51,364 bases of DNA from a virus (Duplodnaviria; Caudoviricetes): positions 1 through 51,364 of the IMG/VR virus record IMGVR_UViG_3300033487_000006, one strand, 5' to 3'. The notes under the pieces are model-generated. The model had not been told where the DNA came from, did no database searches, and was given only the letters and a program-made list of their open reading frames with translations. The first letter of the stretch is position 1; each line of letters starts with the position of its first letter. A program made the translations under genes and the position numbers. Shown in pieces: positions 6,148-46,452 of the stretch.

Positions 6148-6953
6148 GCGGCACGCTCCATGTCGATCTTCGGGTAGGGTCGCGCGGGCGCCGTCAGAAC
6201 CTCGCGGCGCCGGCGCTTGTCGAGGCACCACAGGTAGCGGTGGCAGCCGCGGTGCCGCATCGGACGCGTCAGCTCTGCGCACCACTGACGGAGCCACGCG
6301 CGAACGTTTTCGCCGTCTTGCGGCTTCGGCGCGCCCCAGTTCACAAGTTGTGCGATCGCGCGATCGCGACCGCGCTCACCTGCGACGGCCTTGCTGATCG
6401 CGCGTCGCGACAGCACGGAGCCGTCAGGCAAGATCCGCAGCGTTGCCGGGCGCGTCAGGCCGACGTATCGGCCGTTGGTCGCCTGGTAGATCGTCCCGCC
6501 GTGGCCCGGGAACACGCGGCGTCCGCGCCGGTCGGTGCGTGGCACCGGGTCCGCGCAGCTCTCGACCGCGACGACGCCCCGCGCGGCCAGGAGCTCGAAC
6601 GCACGCGCGATGAACCAGCTCTCGCCGTTGCCCGGCACGCTGTCGAGCAGGACGAGCCGGCCGAGCGTGACGGCCTGGCGCGGCGTGAGGCCGGGGAACA
6701 CCGCGCGGTGCGCCGCCATCGACGCCGGCGGCCCGAACAGCGCCACGCCGGCGAGCCCGCCACGCTGGTAGAGCCCGAAGCGGTGCGCCGTCGAGCTGGC
6801 CGTGCCCGAGTAGTGGTGCTGCGCGACAAACGCGGAGGCCTCGCGCGCGCTCGCGATCGGCTCGACGTCGTAGGCCGAGGTGCAGATCGGCTCGCCCGCC
6901 GGGCGACGGTGCTCGCGGCCGAGCGTCCAGCGCTGGACGGCGTCGACGATCAC
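6144..6953 (-). CDS. Mom-like adenine modification (GNAT-fold) protein
   Basis: FVAQHHYSG...LGRLVLLDSVPGNGESWFIARA...ADP...GHGGTIYQATN. Confidence 0.8.
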   Translation of the reverse strand: MIVDAVQRWTLGREHRRPAGEPICTSAYDVEPIASAREASAFVAQHHYSGTASSTAHRFGLYQRGGLAGVALFGPPASMAAHRAVFPGLTPRQAVTLGRLVLLDSVPGNGESWFIARAFELLAARGVVAVESCADPVPRTDRRGRRVFPGHGGTIYQATNGRYVGLTRPATLRILPDGSVLSRRAISKAVAGERGRDRAIAQLVNWGAPKPQDGENVRAWLRQWCAELTRPMRHRGCHRYLWCLDKRRRREVLTAPARPYPKIDMERAA

Positions 6954-7903
6954 AGCGGCAGTCCTTCCTGACCGCGCGCCGCCGGGAGGCAGTGCGGCGA
7001 GAACCAGATGCGTTCGCGAGCGCGTGACTTCGACGTGCTCGTCGACTTCCACGCGACCTTCGTCCACGTGGTCGGCATCTCGTGCTCGCCCTCGAACCCG
7101 CACAGCGCGATCCGCAGCGCCGGGTTGTTGCCGTTCCTGATGGCCCACTCGCGCACGCGCGACGAGATCGCCGGATCGTCCTCGCGGTAGAGCCGCTTCT
7201 CGCGCGTGTCGTGCGCGTACGGGCCATCAAGGAAGACCCCGCACGGCGTCATGCCGTGCGTGGTGTCGATGCCGAGCGTCGAGCGGCCGAGCACGCGGGT
7301 CCAGTCACCGCAACAGACGCGGACGTGCCGGATCCTCTCTGCCAGTCGCTCGAACAGGTCGGATGGCTTGCCGCTCCGGTGCTCGCCCTTGTTGCGGTGG
7401 GTGAGCGGCTTCTTCCTCGACGGCGCGTGAACGCCGTGCCCCGGCGTGCCCACCTTCGGCATGCACCGGTGCAGTCGCTCGTCCTTGCTGCACCACCCGT
7501 TGCCGATCCACGCGCTGATCCCCCAGACCCACCACCCCGCGATCCTCGGGTCGGAGTACTCGGGATCCTGGACCAGGCGCTCGAACAGCGATGGGGCCTG
7601 ATGGACAAGCCAGCGGTGACGCGCGTGCAGGTCGGCCTCGTTCACCGGCCAGTCCGCCCAGCGCGCGACCTCGTCGGGCTTCGACTGGACGGCGCGCCAG
7701 AAGTTACTGATCAGCCCGTCCTTGTCGTTGACCGTCTCGACCTTGCCGGGCCCGCGCGGGCGCGCGAGCAGCACGGCAAGGCTGCCGGCGAACGGCTCGA
7801 CGTAGTTCGGGACGTCGCCGAACGCCTCCCACACGAGCGGCGCAGCGAGGAACTTGCCCCCGTACCAGGGGAACGGAGCTCGGAGTACTCGCCTCGAGGT
7901 CAT
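6950..7903 (-). CDS. Dam-like (D12 class) DNA adenine methyltransferase with variant DGPY motif
   Basis: PFPWYGGK, YVEPFAGSLAV, ETVND, VFLDGPY, RERIWFS. Confidence 0.85.
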   Translation of the reverse strand: MTSRRVLRAPFPWYGGKFLAAPLVWEAFGDVPNYVEPFAGSLAVLLARPRGPGKVETVNDKDGLISNFWRAVQSKPDEVARWADWPVNEADLHARHRWLVHQAPSLFERLVQDPEYSDPRIAGWWVWGISAWIGNGWCSKDERLHRCMPKVGTPGHGVHAPSRKKPLTHRNKGEHRSGKPSDLFERLAERIRHVRVCCGDWTRVLGRSTLGIDTTHGMTPCGVFLDGPYAHDTREKRLYREDDPAISSRVREWAIRNGNNPALRIALCGFEGEHEMPTTWTKVAWKSTSTSKSRARERIWFSPHCLPAARGQEGLPL

Positions 7904-20196: not shown

Positions 20197-20443
20197 CCTG
20201 TCGCGCATCCTCAAGAGCGAGGACCCGAAGCTTCCCGGCTGGCGACTGCGCGTGTCCGCCGAGGACGACATCGAGATCGAGATCGTGGAGGAGATGGTCC
20301 ACCCCGAGCAGGTCGACAACCCCGAGGCGCGCCACGCGCGGCGCAACGCGAAGATGATCCTCGTGCGGCACGAGGCCGAGTGGCTGCGCGACACGCTGAC
20401 CGCGTGGCTCGCCGCCGCAGAACAGGAGCCGTCCCGTGGGTGA
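20189..20443 (+). CDS. Hypothetical protein
   Basis: GGAGG RBS; overlaps neighbours. Confidence 0.6.
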   Translation: MADLSRILKSEDPKLPGWRLRVSAEDDIEIEIVEEMVHPEQVDNPEARHARRNAKMILVRHEAEWLRDTLTAWLAAAEQEPSRG

Positions 20444-21263
20444 GAAGACCAACATCTCGTGGACCCACCACACCTTCAACCCGTGGTGGGGGTGCTGGAA
20501 GATCTCGCCGGAGTGCGAGAACTGCTACGCCGAGGCCTGGGATCACCGGCTCGGCGGCGAGCACTGGGGCCGCACGGCGCCGCGGCGCTTCTTCGGCGCC
20601 GCGCACTGGAAGGAGCCGCGGCGCTGGAACAAGGACGCCGAGCTCGCCGGCGAGCGGCGGCGGGTGTTCTGCGAGTCGATGGGCGACCTCTTCGAGCGGC
20701 ATCCGGTGCCCGAGACCGCGGCGCTCATGGACGAGGCGCGGGCGCGGCTGTGGCGGCTGATCAACGACACGCCTTGGCTCGACTGGCTGCTCCTGACGAA
20801 GCGGCCCGAGAACTTCGCGACGATGCTGCCGTGGGCGCTGGACGGCAGGCCGTGGCCCAACGTGTGGGCGGGAGTCACCGCGGGCGTGCGCTCGTCGCTG
20901 CCTCGCGTGGAGATCTTGCGCCGCACGCCCGCCGTCGCGCACTTCGTGTCGGGCGAGCCGCTCCTCGAGCACATCACGCGCGAGGACTGGGACCGCGCGC
21001 TCGATCCCGTGGCGGTCGGTGCGCTCTACGACATCGACCTGCTGATCATCGGCGACGAGAGCGGCTCGCGCCGGCGCCCGGCTCAGCTCGACTGGGTGCG
21101 CGACGCGCGCGACGCCGCCGAGCGCAACGGGGTCGCGTTCCACTTCAAGCAGTGGTGCGGCGTCGACGAGCCCGGCATCGAGGGCGAGCGCGTGAAGGGC
21201 AAGTACCACCTGCCGGTTCTCGACCGCCGGAAGCACGACGACATGCCGGAGGTCCGCCGATGA
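20436..21263 (+). CDS. DUF5131 / phage Gp37Gp68 radical-SAM-like protein
   Basis: TNISWTHHTFNPWWGCWKISPECENCYA, VFCESMGDLF, LLTKRPEN, SGEPLL, FHFKQW. Confidence 0.92.
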   Translation: MGEKTNISWTHHTFNPWWGCWKISPECENCYAEAWDHRLGGEHWGRTAPRRFFGAAHWKEPRRWNKDAELAGERRRVFCESMGDLFERHPVPETAALMDEARARLWRLINDTPWLDWLLLTKRPENFATMLPWALDGRPWPNVWAGVTAGVRSSLPRVEILRRTPAVAHFVSGEPLLEHITREDWDRALDPVAVGALYDIDLLIIGDESGSRRRPAQLDWVRDARDAAERNGVAFHFKQWCGVDEPGIEGERVKGKYHLPVLDRRKHDDMPEVRR

Positions 21264-21361
21264 TCGGCCGCGTCGTGCAGACCCTCACCGGCTGCGTGCT
21301 GTTCGCGGCGTTCTGCTGGTACATCCGGCCGCGGCGCCGGTTCCACCGGAGGCGGCGGTGA
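21260..21361 (+). CDS. 33-aa membrane peptide
   Basis: Hydrophobic core plus Arg-rich tail; coupled at both ends. Confidence 0.45.
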   Translation: MIGRVVQTLTGCVLFAAFCWYIRPRRRFHRRRR

Positions 21362-23148
21362 AGTTTCGCATCCTCCACTTCTTCGCCGGCATCGGCGGAT
21401 CCGCGCTCGGCGCCGGCGCGGCCTCGGCGCGCCTCGGCGATCACGAGGCGACGTTCGAGACCATCGGCGGGATCGAGCTGGACGCGGCCGCGTGCCGCGA
21501 CTTCGAGCGGCTGACCGGCGCCCCCGCGCTGTGCGTCGACGTGCACGAGCTCGAGCCAGCCGAGCTGCGCCGGTTTTGCGGCCGCGCGCGCCCCGACGCC
21601 GTGATGCTGAGCCCGCCGTGCAAGGGCTTCTCGGGGCTGCTCTCGGCGAAGCGGGCCGCCGAGCCGCACTACCAGCGCATGAACACGCTGATGCTGCGCG
21701 CCCTGTTCCTGATCGCCGAGACGTGGCCCGATCGCCCGCCGCTGATCTTCGTCGAGAACGTGCCGCGGATCGGCTCGCGAGGGAAGGACATCGTGCGGCA
21801 GTCGATCGCGCTGCTCGAGTCCGCGGGCTACGCGGTCGCCACGGGGAGCCACGACTGCGGCGAGCTCGGCGGTCTCGCCCAGCACCGGCGCCGCTGGTTC
21901 CTCCTGGCGCGGCACCTGCGGGAGCTGCCGCAGATCGTGTACCAGCCGGCGAAGCTCCGCGTGCGCGCGTGCGGCGAGGTGATCGGCCCGCTGCCCATGC
22001 CCGGCGACGTCGGGCTCGGAGGGCCGATGCACAGCGTGCCGCGGCTGTCGTGGCGCAACTGGGTCCGGCTCGCGCTGATCCCGGCCGGCGGGGACTGGCG
22101 CGACCTGCCCGGCGTGCTCGCGGACGGCGAGCGGCGCCGCGAGAAGTTCCGGCGCGCGCCCGTCACCGCGTGGGACGCGACGGCCGAGACCGTCACCGGG
22201 CCGGGCGGTAGTGCGTCGGCCGCCGTCGCCGACCCGCGGTTCACGAACATCATGCAGGTGGCCGCTTGGGACGATCCCGCGCGCACCGTGATCGGCGCGT
22301 CCCGGGTGGGCAGCGGCGCTCCGAGCGTCGCGGACCCGCGACTCGCGGAGGTCCTCGGCCTGGGCGACAACGAGGCGCGCCACCGGCACAAGCTCGGCGT
22401 GCTCGGCTGGGATCAGACCGCGCGCACGGTCACGTCGACCCCGACCGTGGGCGGCGGCGCGCCCGCCGTGGCCGATCCGCGGTGGGGCGGCGGCCGGCTC
22501 GGCGTCACGCCATGGGACGAAGCGGCCGGCACCGTCGCCGGCGAGTCGCTGCCGAACAACGGTCGCTACTCCGTCGCCGATCCGCGCTTCGACGAGGGCC
22601 GCCGGAAGAACTGGCAGCGCGTCGCTGGCGTCACGCCGTGGGATGCGGCGGCGCCGACCGTCACGAGCGGCGCGAAGATCCACGCCGGCGCGTTCCAGGT
22701 CGCCGACCCTCGGCTCGGCTGCGCGCCGCGCGCGGGCGCCTACCGCGTGCTCCGATGGGACGAGGCCGCCGCGACGATCACCGGATCGATCGCGATCGAC
22801 AACGGCGCCGCGGCCGTCGCGGACCCCAGGCTCGACCCCGACAAGCCGCCGCCGTTCACGCCGGTGATCGTCGCCGCCGACGGGACGTGGCACCGGCCGC
22901 TGACCACCCTCGAGCTCGCCGCGCTGCAGGGGTTCCCGGTCACGATCGGCGGCGCGCCGCTCGTCCTCGACGGCACGAGCCACACGCGGTGGCGCGAGGC
23001 GATCGGCAACGCCGTCCCGCCGCCGGCGGCGCACGCGATCGGCGAGCAGCTCCTGCGCGCGCTGCTGATCGCGAAGCTCGGCGCGTTCGCCCTCGACGGC
23101 CAGCATGAGGTGTGGGTCGACCAGGAGCGGAGGGCGCTGGTCGTATGA
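21358..23148 (+). CDS. DNA (cytosine-5) methyltransferase with six internal repeats
   Basis: FAGIGG, SPPCKGFS, ENV, QHRRR, IGNAVP. Confidence 0.93.
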   Translation: MKFRILHFFAGIGGSALGAGAASARLGDHEATFETIGGIELDAAACRDFERLTGAPALCVDVHELEPAELRRFCGRARPDAVMLSPPCKGFSGLLSAKRAAEPHYQRMNTLMLRALFLIAETWPDRPPLIFVENVPRIGSRGKDIVRQSIALLESAGYAVATGSHDCGELGGLAQHRRRWFLLARHLRELPQIVYQPAKLRVRACGEVIGPLPMPGDVGLGGPMHSVPRLSWRNWVRLALIPAGGDWRDLPGVLADGERRREKFRRAPVTAWDATAETVTGPGGSASAAVADPRFTNIMQVAAWDDPARTVIGASRVGSGAPSVADPRLAEVLGLGDNEARHRHKLGVLGWDQTARTVTSTPTVGGGAPAVADPRWGGGRLGVTPWDEAAGTVAGESLPNNGRYSVADPRFDEGRRKNWQRVAGVTPWDAAAPTVTSGAKIHAGAFQVADPRLGCAPRAGAYRVLRWDEAAATITGSIAIDNGAAAVADPRLDPDKPPPFTPVIVAADGTWHRPLTTLELAALQGFPVTIGGAPLVLDGTSHTRWREAIGNAVPPPAAHAIGEQLLRALLIAKLGAFALDGQHEVWVDQERRALVV

Positions 23149-23321
23149 CCTCGCCCGACGACCTCGCCCGGCGCCGCGCGCGCATCCAGCGCCTGGCTGC
23201 GAAGCGCCCCGAGGGCCTCACGATCGAGGTGACGCACGCGCCGGAGCCGGGCGCGCTCGAGCGCCTGGCCGACGTCCTAGCCGAGCTGCTGGACGCGCGG
23301 CGCCGCTCCGGACGAAGGTGA
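23145..23321 (+). CDS. 58-aa protein coupled to integrase (RDF candidate)
   Basis: ATGA/GTGA coupling; function inferred from position only. Confidence 0.5.
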   Translation: MTSPDDLARRRARIQRLAAKRPEGLTIEVTHAPEPGALERLADVLAELLDARRRSGRR

Positions 23322-24892
23322 TCGCCGTGCCCGCCGTCCGTGCCGCCCTGTACGCACGTGTTTCGAGCGCCGCGCAGCGCGACGCCCACACGATCGAGAA
23401 CCAGCTCCGCGCGCTGCCGGCGTTCGCCGCGGCGCAGGGCTGGACGGTCACCGAGACATACGTCGACGACGGCCGCTCCGCGAAGGCTGGCCAGCTCGAG
23501 CGCCGCGAGGGGTTCGCGCGCCTGGTCCGCGACGCCGAGGCGCGCCGCTTCGACGTGCTCGTCGTCGCCGACGTCGACCGGCTCACGCGCACCGACAGCC
23601 TCGAAGAGCGCGCACGGATTCTCGGCCCGTTCCAGCGCCTGGGGATCCGGATCGTCACGCCCGCCGGAGGCGAGCTCGACCTGCGGACCCTGGTCGGCGA
23701 GCTCTACGTCACGCTGCAGGCGATCGTCGCCGCCGAGGAGAATCGCAAGCGCGCCGAGCGCGTGAAGGCCGGCAAGGCGCGCGCGATCGCCGAGGGCCGC
23801 AAGCCGGCCGGGCCGACGCCCTACGGCCTGGCCTACGCGCGCGCGGCCGGCGCCTGGTCGATCGAGCCCGCGCGCGCGGCGATCGTCCGCGAGATCTTCG
23901 CCCGGGTGATCGCCGGCGAGAGCTGCATGGTGATCGCCGACGACCTGCACGCCCGCGGCGCGCCGCCGCCGCGCGGGCCCTGGACGCGGCACAAGGTGTG
24001 GCAGCTCGCGAGGTCGCCGCACGCGATGGGCCGGTGGGCGGCCGACAAGCGCCGGCGGCTCGTGATCGACGTCCCCCCGATCGTAGACGAGGCGACGTGG
24101 CACGCGGCGCAAGCGAAGCTGATCGAGCACGGCAAGCGCGGGCTCCGGCGCACGCGGCACGTCTACCTGCTCGAGGGCCTGGCCGTGTGCGGCCGGTGCG
24201 GCTCGCCGATCGCGATCCGGTCCGCGGCCCTCGGCGGCTCGCCGGCCGCGTACGTCTGCCGCGCCCGCAAGCTCGCGCGCCGCGGCGAGGCGCGCTGCTC
24301 GGCCCCGATCGTGCCGGTCGCCGACCTGGACGGCCGGCTGTGGGCGCGGCTCGCGGAGGTGCTGGAGGATCCGCAGCTCGCGGACCTGGTCCAGCGCAGG
24401 AGCGGCGAGCTCGCCGCCGACCGCCGCGGGTGGCACGAGGACGTGGCCGGCTACCGCGCCGAGCTGGCGCGGCTCGGCCGGGCCTCGGCCGGGGTGCTGC
24501 GCCGCCTGAGCCGCGAGCTGGTGCCGGAGGAGGTCGGCGAGGCCGAGCTCGCCGCGATCGCGCGCCAGCGGGCCGCGGTCGCCGCGCAGCTACAGGCGGC
24601 CGAGCGGGCGGCGGACGGCCCGGACGAGCTCGAGCGCGCGCCTACGGCGTGGCTGGAGGCGATCCGCGAGCTGGCCGGAGACGGGACGCCGACCGAGCGT
24701 CAGCGCGTCGTACGCGAGCTCCTGCAGCCCGGGGCGGTGATCGACGGGACCGACGTCCGGCTCACGCTGCGGGTGCCAGTGGGAGCGTCTCGCGGCGCCG
24801 GCGGCGGGAGCGCGGGAGCCCCGTCTCTCGCGGTGGCTCCTGGTTGCAGGATGCACCACGAGAACGGGCTGCGGATCCGCCTGGTTGCGTGA
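23318..24892 (+). CDS. Large serine recombinase (integrase)
   Basis: ALYARVSS..Q, DDGRS, DVDRLTR, PYG, LLEGLAVCGRCG...YVC...C zinc ribbon, coiled coil. Confidence 0.95.
   Translation: MIAVPAVRAALYARVSSAAQRDAHTIENQLRALPAFAAAQGWTVTETYVDDGRSAKAGQLERREGFARLVRDAEARRFDVLVVADVDRLTRTDSLEERARILGPFQRLGIRIVTPAGGELDLRTLVGELYVTLQAIVAAEENRKRAERVKAGKARAIAEGRKPAGPTPYGLAYARAAGAWSIEPARAAIVREIFARVIAGESCMVIADDLHARGAPPPRGPWTRHKVWQLARSPHAMGRWAADKRRRLVIDVPPIVDEATWHAAQAKLIEHGKRGLRRTRHVYLLEGLAVCGRCGSPIAIRSAALGGSPAAYVCRARKLARRGEARCSAPIVPVADLDGRLWARLAEVLEDPQLADLVQRRSGELAADRRGWHEDVAGYRAELARLGRASAGVLRRLSRELVPEEVGEAELAAIARQRAAVAAQLQAAERAADGPDELERAPTAWLEAIRELAGDGTPTERQRVVRELLQPGAVIDGTDVRLTLRVPVGASRGAGGGSAGAPSLAVAPGCRMHHENGLRIRLVA
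24818..24870. other. Putative attP inside integrase 3' end
   Basis: Imperfect inverted repeat (14/17 inner arm match) centred on TT at 24844-24845. Confidence 0.65.
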
Positions 24893-44285: not shown

Positions 44286-46415
44286 CTACGCGCCGGCGTT
44301 CGTGACCGCGCCCTTGGCGTCGGCCTCCTGCGCCTTGGCGTACTGCGTGACCTTCCACTCGACGCCGTCGATGCGCCAGCCGTTCTGGCTCTCCATGATC
44401 GGCCCGCGGCCGTACCCCTCGAGGAAGGCGACCACGATCGCGGCGCAGATGTTCGGATCGGCGAACAGGTACCGGCGGGTGGTGTTGGACGCGAGCCGCG
44501 GCGTGCCGACGATGTCGCCGAACAGGCCCCGCACCATGTTGGGGCGCTGCAGCTTGTTCGCCGTGTCGGGGTCGTACTGCGCGTCGTTGATCACGCGCGC
44601 CGTTCCCTCGAGCGCATCCGGCACGACGAGGATGCGGGGCGACAGGCTCAGGTAGTCCCGATTGCTCGGATCCTTCTGCGCGCGCATGAGCACGCGGTCG
44701 GCGTCCAGGCCGGCCACGGTGAGCGCGGAACCGGTGCCGACGTTCGCGCGGTTCGCGTGGAAGAACGGTTGCGAGTCGGACATCGTCGGGCCGAGCCCGC
44801 TGTTGAGCGCGAGCAACGCGTAGACGTCGTTCTCGATGGTGCGCGCCGCCGCCCGGCCGAACTCGCCCGCGAGGTTCGCGAGCGCGCCCATGTCGTCGTT
44901 GAGGATCGCCTCGCGCGAGAGCGAGAAGATCTCGCCGTGCCGCTCGGTGCTGATCCCGTACTTCGCGCCGTCGGGGACGATGCCGGTGGTGTACTCGCCG
45001 TGCTCGGAGATCTTCGGCAGCGACGGCAGCGACCCGGTGCGGTAGCGGCTGGACGTCCGGAAGTCCGGAACGTCATCGGTGCCGCAGAACCGCTGCCACG
45101 TGGTCTCCTGCGTCGCGTAGGCGCCGAGCAGCATCTTGTGGAGCACGTTCTCGAGCAGCGTCGCGAAGTCGCTCGTGGTCTGGTACGAGCCGCTGCGGAA
45201 CGTGAACGCCTCGCCGAGCATCCGCATCCGGTCCATGCCGCGGGTCTTGCGGCCCGCGCGCTCGAGCGACTCCCGCGCGAGCTCGACCGGGGAGAGCCCG
45301 CGGAACTCGCCACCACCGCCGAGCTCGAAGCCCTCGAACAGATCGGGCGCCCGCTTCTTCGCCTGCTCGAGCAGCTTGCGCTTGCCGGTGCGCTCGATCA
45401 GCCACGCGGTCGCGCCGCGGAGGAACTTGTCCCGCGCGTCGTCGCCAGCGCCGATGCGCAGCACGCCGTCGACATCGTGCTCGCTGTCGGCCGACGTGAT
45501 CTCGCGGAACGCCACCTCGCGCGCCTTCTCGGCCGAAACGCCGGCCTCGATGAGGCTCGTCGCCCAGCCGTCGCCGAGCCTGGACTGCTGGGCGATCTTG
45601 CGGATGCCCGCGACGCGCGCGCGCTCGCCGGCAATCGCGTCCTCGGCTGCCTGCGCCGCCGCGGCGTCGCGCGCCGCGCGCTCCTCCATGCGCGCGCGCC
45701 GCGTGGCGGCGGTCGCGGCGGTGGCGGCTGCCTCCTGCGCAGCATCGGCGGCGGCCGTCGGAGAGCCCTGCGGCGCCGGAGTCGTGGGGTCGTTCTCGGG
45801 GTCCATGGTCCTGTCCTTGTTGGCGGTCGCAGTTCTCGTGACGAAGACGCACGCCGTGCGCTTCGCAGTGGTGCTCTCGGCGCGGAAGCCGGCGCCGTCG
45901 TCGGCGCCCATCGGCACCGGCGAAATCTCGTACGGCTCCCAGTCGGTCGCGCGGAAGCGCTTGACCTTGTCCTTGCCGGCCTCGACCTCTTCCATCTTGT
46001 AAGTCGAGTAGCCGACGGAGACGTTCTGGAGGATGCCGTCCTTGACCTTGCGCCAGATCTCGTCGGCCGCCGCATCGTCCTCGGCCTTGGCGAAACGAAC
46101 GGTCGCGATGCCGCGACCGTTCTCGATGCGCGCGCTGCCGGGGACCACGACTCCGATCACGCCTCTGGCGTCGCGATCGTTGTGCGCGTTGAGGACCGGC
46201 GCACCGTTGTTCAGACGCTTGAGCCGCACGTGCTTGGGATCCAGCGACAGCTCCTCCCAGTAGCGATCGTAGAAGCCGCGCAGCACCGCGGCGCCCGTCG
46301 TCCAGATCACGTCGACGGTGCGCGCCTCCTCGTCGAGGCTGTTCGGCACGATCGCCGCCGCCCGGGAGAGCACCGGCAGATCAACCGTTGCGTTGCGCTC
46401 GGCGTCTCGTCTCAC
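44286..46415 (-). CDS. Fused prohead protease-scaffold-major capsid protein
   Basis: RLNNGAPVLNAH, VSVGY, DWEPYEIS.VP.GAD; TTSDFA.LL....K.L...Y, V.DFR, LSREAILNDD. Confidence 0.92.
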   Translation of the reverse strand: MRRDAERNATVDLPVLSRAAAIVPNSLDEEARTVDVIWTTGAAVLRGFYDRYWEELSLDPKHVRLKRLNNGAPVLNAHNDRDARGVIGVVVPGSARIENGRGIATVRFAKAEDDAAADEIWRKVKDGILQNVSVGYSTYKMEEVEAGKDKVKRFRATDWEPYEISPVPMGADDGAGFRAESTTAKRTACVFVTRTATANKDRTMDPENDPTTPAPQGSPTAAADAAQEAAATAATAATRRARMEERAARDAAAAQAAEDAIAGERARVAGIRKIAQQSRLGDGWATSLIEAGVSAEKAREVAFREITSADSEHDVDGVLRIGAGDDARDKFLRGATAWLIERTGKRKLLEQAKKRAPDLFEGFELGGGGEFRGLSPVELARESLERAGRKTRGMDRMRMLGEAFTFRSGSYQTTSDFATLLENVLHKMLLGAYATQETTWQRFCGTDDVPDFRTSSRYRTGSLPSLPKISEHGEYTTGIVPDGAKYGISTERHGEIFSLSREAILNDDMGALANLAGEFGRAAARTIENDVYALLALNSGLGPTMSDSQPFFHANRANVGTGSALTVAGLDADRVLMRAQKDPSNRDYLSLSPRILVVPDALEGTARVINDAQYDPDTANKLQRPNMVRGLFGDIVGTPRLASNTTRRYLFADPNICAAIVVAFLEGYGRGPIMESQNGWRIDGVEWKVTQYAKAQEADAKGAVTNAGA

Positions 46416-46425
46416 ATGGGCGGCA

Positions 46426-46452
46426 AGGATCACGGCGCTTGACGGCTGTCAA
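46426..46452 (-). promoter_or_regulatory. Late-promoter motif TTGACA-N15-GATCCT
   Basis: -35 box contains the portal stop codon; 10 nt to GTG. Confidence 0.8.

Follow-up and report, generated by a model that had tools for sequence, protein, structure and literature searches.

In M.HhaI and DNMT1, the target-recognition region of the C5 cytosine DNA methyltransferase contains, besides a conserved Thr-Leu, a loop that makes base contacts in the major groove, and the enzyme of phage SPbeta methylates two targets. Tandem recognition domains have been described as giving Bacillus phage enzymes several targets (PMC8936443), and the tested 5-methylcytosine (m5C) methyltransferases of the JCM7686_0772 and JCM7686_2655 type from Paracoccus aminophilus are described as partly protecting many restriction sites (PMC3925955, PMC6536676, PMC5537653). 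Here we analyse a C5 cytosine DNA methyltransferase gene at 21358..23148 (+ strand) of the IMG/VR virus record IMGVR_UViG_3300033487_000006, in which six tandem modules occupy the place of the recognition region; the window is the whole virus record (51364 bases, G+C ~72%). On balance, we favour the reading that the product is a multispecific lone phage methylase in which each of the six cassette modules is a small recognition unit, and that the family to which it belongs retunes its targets by exchanging cassettes at the Asp-Pro-Arg (DPR) joint between modules.

An earlier note on this DNA, made from the sequence alone, had described six diverged WD..A.T(V/I)...VADPR repeats in the variable region of the enzyme, and the pattern WD..A.T[VI]x(10-14)VADPR indeed matched exactly six times, between motifs VIII and IX, at amino acids (aa) 272-294, 304-328, 351-375, 386-410, 428-452 and 467-491 (22171..22830), and 20000 shuffled versions of the protein gave zero matches. 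Counting the four conserved residues before each Trp, unit 1 begins at 22159. All six units agree in ten columns (V2, W5, D6, A9, T11 and the closing V, A, D, P and R). The array comprises six modules at aa 268-491, of 27-47 residues each, and the module layout is a type-specific linker, the frame V-x-x-W-D-x-P/A-A-x-T-V/I-T-G, a variable loop of ~8 residues and the terminal V-A-D-P-R. All six variable cores that the earlier note had listed were recovered and form the loops of the modules, which lie on the + strand and were delimited by the pattern and by clustering of loop types, from module 2 on together with the linkers. Module 1 (type F, aa 268-294, 22159..22239) carries the loop GPGGSA; module 2 (type A, aa 295-328, 22240..22341) consists of the linker FTNIMQ and a unit with the loop GASRVGSG; module 3 (type Y, aa 329-375, 22342..22482) has a linker of 19 aa and the loop STPTVGGG; module 4 (type C, aa 376-410, 22483..22587) has the linker WGGGRL and the loop GESLPNNG; module 5 (type G, aa 411-452, 22588..22713) has a linker ending in KNWQRVA and the loop SGAKIHAG; and module 6 (type B, aa 453-491, 22714..22830) has the linker LGCAPRAGAYR and the loop GSIAIDNG. 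The order string of the enzyme is accordingly F-A-Y-C-G-B. The repeat is an old, protein-level feature and not a recent DNA duplication, because the DNA copies have diverged (in the multi-copy families D1-D5 they are 64-89% identical to the reference copy), Tandem Repeats Finder reported no array and nothing relevant in the region, and the longest exact word common to the copies is 12 nucleotides (nt).

The array is set into what appears from its sequence to be an intact C5 cytosine DNA methyltransferase with an ordinary catalytic core. According to the open reading frame (ORF) list and its translation, the ORF 21358..23148 has a GTG start and encodes 596 aa (stop codon included in the coordinates), with a G+C content at third codon positions of 0.95. 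The Pfam profile PF00145 matches the product in two stretches with 77.6 bits (cut-off 22), whereas the NCBIfam profile TIGR00675 (dcm) scores 56.6 bits and thus stays below its cut-off of 100.65, because the long array interrupts the match. Motifs I, IV, VI, VIII, IX and X are all intact in the translation (FAGIGG, PPCKGFS, ENV, QHRRR, LTTLELAALQGFP and GNAVPP). The catalytic domain with motifs I-VIII covers aa 1-198 (21358..21951, +; Pfam stretch 3-185), and it is followed by a constant first part of the variable region (LSWRNWVRLALIPAGGDWRDLPGV...RREKFRR, aa 199-267, 21952..22158, +), which is kept in all 43 aligned relatives. Behind the array, the C-terminal part (22831..23148, +) consists of the linker PPPFTPVIVAADGTWHRP and motifs IX and X, as placed by alignment to MET1 and DNMT1. 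In the alignment of 43 relatives the catalytic motifs are invariant or nearly so, with G11, G13, P87, C88, E133, N134, V135, Q175, R177 and R179 unchanged throughout. HMMER aligned aa 80-189 and 497-573 to the two halves of the MET1/DNMT1 catalytic domain, the latter stretch to motifs IX-X, and the IPAGGDWRDLP stretch showed a weak alignment, below significance, to the equivalent stretch of MET1. AlphaFold2 predicted both parts of the core with a predicted local distance difference test (pLDDT) score that is high (>85 for the catalytic domain, aa 1-198, and >84 for aa 510-580), and a Foldseek search with the confident core only matched MET1 (9ped_A, E 9.6e-14), M.HaeIII (3ubt_A, 1.1e-11), M.HhaI (2uz4_A, 1.1e-10) and also DNMT1.

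The two catalytic halves are separated by ~300 residues, at the usual place of the target-recognition region. Because the corresponding region of M.HhaI and DNMT1 has a base-contacting loop, we infer that the variable loop of each module reads DNA. The unit frame D-x-P-A-x-T-V-T resembles the single DEPIRTIT motif that an ordinary C5 methylase of 303 residues (L006) carries 14 residues ahead of motif IX, a weak match (1.9 bits) that holds at motif level only, and the SPbeta enzyme has two similar motifs, SPTLTT and EPAFTV. Were the array to serve a purpose other than reading DNA, for example as a binding site for host proteins or as a flexible tether, with the target set elsewhere in the protein, its low predicted order and the failure of its units to match any solved structure would be understandable. 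That explanation is nevertheless very improbable in our view, as the array lies exactly at the recognition-region place of C5 methyltransferases, between motifs VIII and IX, and the constant part that remains is common to all members and cannot account for their diversity.

In the mechanism that we propose, each module would act as a small target-recognition unit with a target of its own. The modules would pair one at a time with the shared catalytic core and present their loop to the major groove of the DNA, the enzyme would methylate several different short sequences, and the phage DNA would thereby be protected from several host restriction systems, escape from restriction being the presumed purpose of the enzyme. 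Gain, loss, replacement and reordering of modules at or near the DPR codons would then retune the set of protected sites.

Relatives of this enzyme are numerous. Of 8000 candidates scored in a word-indexed search with aa 200-500, 5292 proteins reached E<=0.001, and searching the cluster representatives exhaustively yielded 434 at E<=1e-30. Relatives were found on 162 IMG/VR viral contigs and, with an alignment as query, in 145 stretches of species-representative genomes (Bacillota, Myxococcota, Pseudomonadota, Planctomycetota and others), where a scan with a single protein as query had returned zero. Among deposited phages, 40 records match, including Pseudomonas phages phiCTX, LKA5, H66 and Dobby, Sinorhizobium phage PBC5, Marinobacter phage PS3 and an Achromobacter phage. 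The window enzyme has the tandem V..W..PA.TVTG-loop-VADPR units between IPAGGDWRDLP and DGTWHRPLTTLE by which we define the family, six in number, and the unit frame is present in 265 relatives and in phages phiCTX, LKA5, PBC5 and PS3. In our literature search, neither this VADPR-module family nor a VADPR motif in methylases was found described, and no published name for the family turned up.

The earlier note had proposed a comparison of repeat number and order across homologs, which we carried out with a unit profile built from the window's six units and refined once. It detected 1615 units in the 265 fetched proteins, with 1-12 units per protein and most often 6 or 7; in 160 ORFs of the fetched loci the number ranged from 1 to 9 and was most often 5, and among the named phages phiCTX orf41 has 5 units, LKA5 gp10 6, PBC5 gp34 8 and PS3 4. 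When unit types were defined as clusters of loop columns at 50% identity, 180 clusters resulted, of which 45 have five or more members, and the 265 proteins displayed 253 different type orders. The internal order varies, with A before E in 24 proteins and after E in 30. Type Y, the third module of the window enzyme, is rare (10 of the 1615 units), and its own upstream linker is conserved. The termini are more regular: in 147 of the 265 proteins the array begins with type F (90 proteins) or type H (57), types G or I usually stand next to last (of 79 G units, 47 do so and 27 are last), and type B is last in 114 of 138 occurrences. At the lower end of the range are P0088, with F-G-B only, and P0202, a full-length protein of 427 aa with a single H unit, which indicates that one unit can suffice.

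This distribution bears on two further explanations. 'Pseudo domains' are known from Bacillus phage enzymes, and only one or a few of the modules might be active here, the others being relics or spacers in an enzyme with one or two targets. The nearly fixed end types (F/H, G/I and B) and the minimal F-G-B enzyme do suggest a core set plus optional extras, and some units of relatives are degenerate, such as the fourth unit of phiCTX orf41 (14.6 bits). Yet all six units of the window gene keep the ten invariant frame residues, and the internal types A (the commonest, with 197 units), C (106) and E (98) are widespread and conserved, which is unexpected for relics, so that we regard this as distinctly unlikely. 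Alternatively, the modules might bind side by side in the manner of transcription activator-like (TAL) effector repeats, each reading a base or two, and the array would specify one long composite target, as the similar size of the tandem modules, the hypervariable loop in a constant frame and the variable number and order could be taken to imply. We give this hardly any credence, since members with one unit exist, a long and rare target protects against few restriction enzymes, ordinary enzymes have a single recognition motif similar to the frame, and a regular superhelix finds no support in any structural model. The reading of each module as a recognition unit may be carried further, in that each of the at least 45 module types would encode one short DNA target, the order string would be a readable target list retuned by swaps at the DPR joint, and a C5 methyltransferase could have up to 12 specificities; this extension we put forward tentatively, and it may well not hold.

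The earlier note had suggested reshuffling through the conserved VADPR-coding DNA. The part of this suggestion that concerns different genes stood: they differ by whole modules, with boundaries at or near DPR. Inside this gene, a recombination driven by DNA repeats was considered and rejected on account of the longest exact repeat of 12 nt; ordinary homologous recombination within the gene is unlikely, because no more than 12 identical bases are common to its VADPR-coding stretches. The module exchange observed is between genes, or uses microhomology.

The extent of the exchanged segment follows from 988 linkers. The six linker residues before a unit show an identity of 0.50 when the following type is shared and the preceding one differs, against a baseline of 0.15, whereas the six residues after VADPR show an identity of 0.09 when the preceding type is shared, against 0.08. 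As the linker travels with the next unit and the residues after VADPR are independent of the previous unit, a module is composed of the linker and the unit that follows it, with the boundary right after VADPR. In a set of 222 full-length proteins, the N-terminal domains are >=90% identical in 20 pairs, and 0 of these 20 pairs share the same order; since the 222 proteins are cluster representatives from which near-duplicates had been removed, this result shows that turnover occurs and not how fast.

In four pairs of near-identical genes the differences comprise whole modules, and the divergent blocks end at or within a few codons of DPR, with boundaries taken by eye from printed alignments because automated block calls were noisy. 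Phage LKA5 has two modules where phiCTX has one different module, and the two enzymes are unlike only in this block, which lies between their third and their last unit; two Paenibacillus genomes (L076 and L073) differ by the replacement of one module and by the presence or absence of another of 41 residues; the Brevibacillus paralogs L045 and L044 of one genome, the clearest case, differ by the replacement of one module, their nt identity being 95.4% outside the replaced block (610 codons) and 41% within it (35 codons); and between the viral contig L143 and the Anaeromyxobacter genome L019, two modules (84 residues) are present or absent. Taken together, these comparisons support modular reshuffling at the VADPR junction. 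The two Brevibacillus paralogs lie on two contigs of their genome and probably sit on two related prophages.

The same evidence speaks to the possibility that the array is one cooperative DNA-binding region whose specificity is relaxed and very short (most cytosines of a dinucleotide context, for instance), in which changes of modules would alter efficiency or breadth and not discrete sites. The predicted lack of a fixed structure would fit such a flexible region wrapping the DNA. Loop types are, however, kept across catalytic domains that are only ~50% identical while other unit positions drift (a contrast that is partly circular, the types being loop-defined), near-identical genes have whole modules replaced by different types, and a single-unit member exists. 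A function of its own for each module explains the retention of loops, the whole-module swaps and the single-unit member more easily, and we therefore judge the cooperative region unlikely, though it deserves to be kept in mind.

Several observations nevertheless weigh against the multispecific enzyme with one recognition unit per module that we favour. The literature that we searched yielded no methylation measurement for any member of the VADPR family, and multispecific methylation is suggested by analogy, as both of its supports, from the Bacillus phage enzymes and from Paracoccus, are analogous systems. The Paracoccus family is itself presented in its publications as one of 'relaxed' specificity with partial protection, which is not proof of one target per module, and on the SPbeta enzyme our unit profile scores -3.4 bits, the only match being the six residues EPAFTV. 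The first (F or H) and last (G or I, then B) positions of the array are nearly fixed, and the units placed there may have a structural role and not a specific one. Loop conservation within types is partly circular, the types having been defined by loops. Lastly, the array has a pLDDT of <50 throughout in the AlphaFold2 model of the window protein (run with 43 sequences), and the array of the minimal F-G-B relative P0088 is also <50 (run with 40 relatives of the F...GB order); structural support for DNA-facing loops is thus absent and we make no structural claim. The six-unit profile gave zero matches at E<=10 against the sequences of the Protein Data Bank, and in a search of solved structures with the single-unit relative P0202, a MET1 stretch among the matches listed spans its unit, at a low rank.

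The methyltransferase belongs to a temperate tailed phage and is without a partner nuclease. The window carries genes for terminase, portal, a capsid-protease fusion, tail sheath and baseplate proteins, and a comparison of its terminase with those of deposited phages found no close relative. The gene sits in a block on the + strand, downstream of RecT-like, exonuclease and ParB-like genes. Its upstream neighbour (20436..21263, +) encodes a DUF5131 protein of the phage Gp37/Gp68 family (Pfam PF07505, E 1.4e-61; phrog_2045) and its downstream neighbour (23105..24892, +) a large serine recombinase, the phage integrase (Pfam Resolvase, Recombinase and Zn_ribbon_recom); no gene beside it was recognised by Pfam as a restriction nuclease. 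The recombinase, taken as its longest ORF, shares 44 bases (23105..23148) with the end of the methylase gene, and because the Resolvase domain begins only at residue 80, the true start of the recombinase may be further downstream. Elsewhere in the window, a second DNA methyltransferase, of the adenine D12 class (6950..7903, -), matches profiles with about its first 80 residues only (Pfam E 1.1e-5; phrog_56), and one ORF of 715 aa (44286..46433, -) joins a prohead protease (Peptidase_S78) to a major capsid domain (Phage_capsid_4, Mu gpT-like).

In 30 other loci of family members, 197 flanking ORFs were found, and among the 90 that were scanned, 0 matched a restriction-nuclease family; one matched HNH_3, eight were other DNA methyltransferases and the remainder were phage replication genes or unmatched. 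The VADPR methylase often lies within a cluster of DNA-modification genes. A DUF5131 gene adjoins family members in two of the 30 loci (L010 8021-9001 and L016 4742-5743), PAPS-reductase-like genes (PAPS_reduct) stand beside them in three (L003, L005 and L033), and a DpdA-like gene does so in one (L026).

Some members of the family have peculiarities of their own. P0239 (834 aa) has an insertion of ~400 residues (residues ~108-505) right after the SPPC of the catalytic PC motif, with the normal sequence resuming at ...HNCKGMSG, which looks like an intein inside the active-site motif. In P0148, P0164, P0192 and P0246, stretches rich in Arg, Ser and Pro in or after the array resemble out-of-frame translation and suggest frameshifts or assembly errors in the repeat-coding DNA.

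If each module indeed has one target, the family would represent the largest naturally occurring set of exchangeable parts with which a cytosine methylase recognises its targets, and it would show phages and plasmids tracking changes of host restriction by cassette exchange and not by point mutation. The m5C targets of thousands of unannotated enzymes would become predictable from sequence, at a time when m5C motifs are poorly charted, and the small modules would be usable as parts for engineered methylases. Cultured phages, namely phiCTX, LKA5, PBC5 and Marinobacter PS3, carry members of the family.

Compared with described systems, the Paracoccus-type enzymes share with the window enzyme that they are large lone C5 methyltransferases of prophages with a long variable region. 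They differ in forming a separate family, to which the window enzyme does not belong by sequence. Pyei1_p05 (p05 of Paracoccus phage vB_PyeM_Pyei1; L083 1990-4011), which is 69% identical to the tested enzymes of this type, aligns to the window enzyme with 25% identity over aa 5-185 only (E 8.5e-4), is without VADPR, has a best unit score of 6.4 bits, and has a long variable region of its own with about seven weak EPxxT[IV]T matches. We had considered the Paracoccus-type assays as direct evidence and rejected them as such, since this comparison puts Pyei1_p05 in a separate family. To judge from the sequences, the Paracoccus type appears to be a second family built on the same principle, and its assays would bear on the VADPR family by analogy.

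The Bacillus SPbeta/SPR group resembles the window enzyme in being phage-borne, in having no partner restriction nuclease and in carrying tandem segments between motifs VIII and IX, each with a P-x-x-T-[LVI] motif, from which a recognition role for the window's modules would follow by likeness. The sequence relation between the modules of the two groups is undetectable, though, and 0 of the 40 phage records matched by P0001 are Bacillus phages. Whereas the SPbeta enzyme has two TL-type motifs, members of the VADPR family have 1-12 modules that end in VADPR, are of at least 45 types and are shuffled family-wide. With the ordinary C5 methyltransferases (Dcm, M.HaeIII, M.HhaI and DNMT1) the window enzyme has the same catalytic core and fold in common, but these have one recognition region with one DEPxxTIT-like motif shortly before motif IX where it has six modules. 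Tandem recognition domains in phage C5 methylases are a kind of architecture already known, and the VADPR family represents a separate variant of it that is far larger and more combinatorial.

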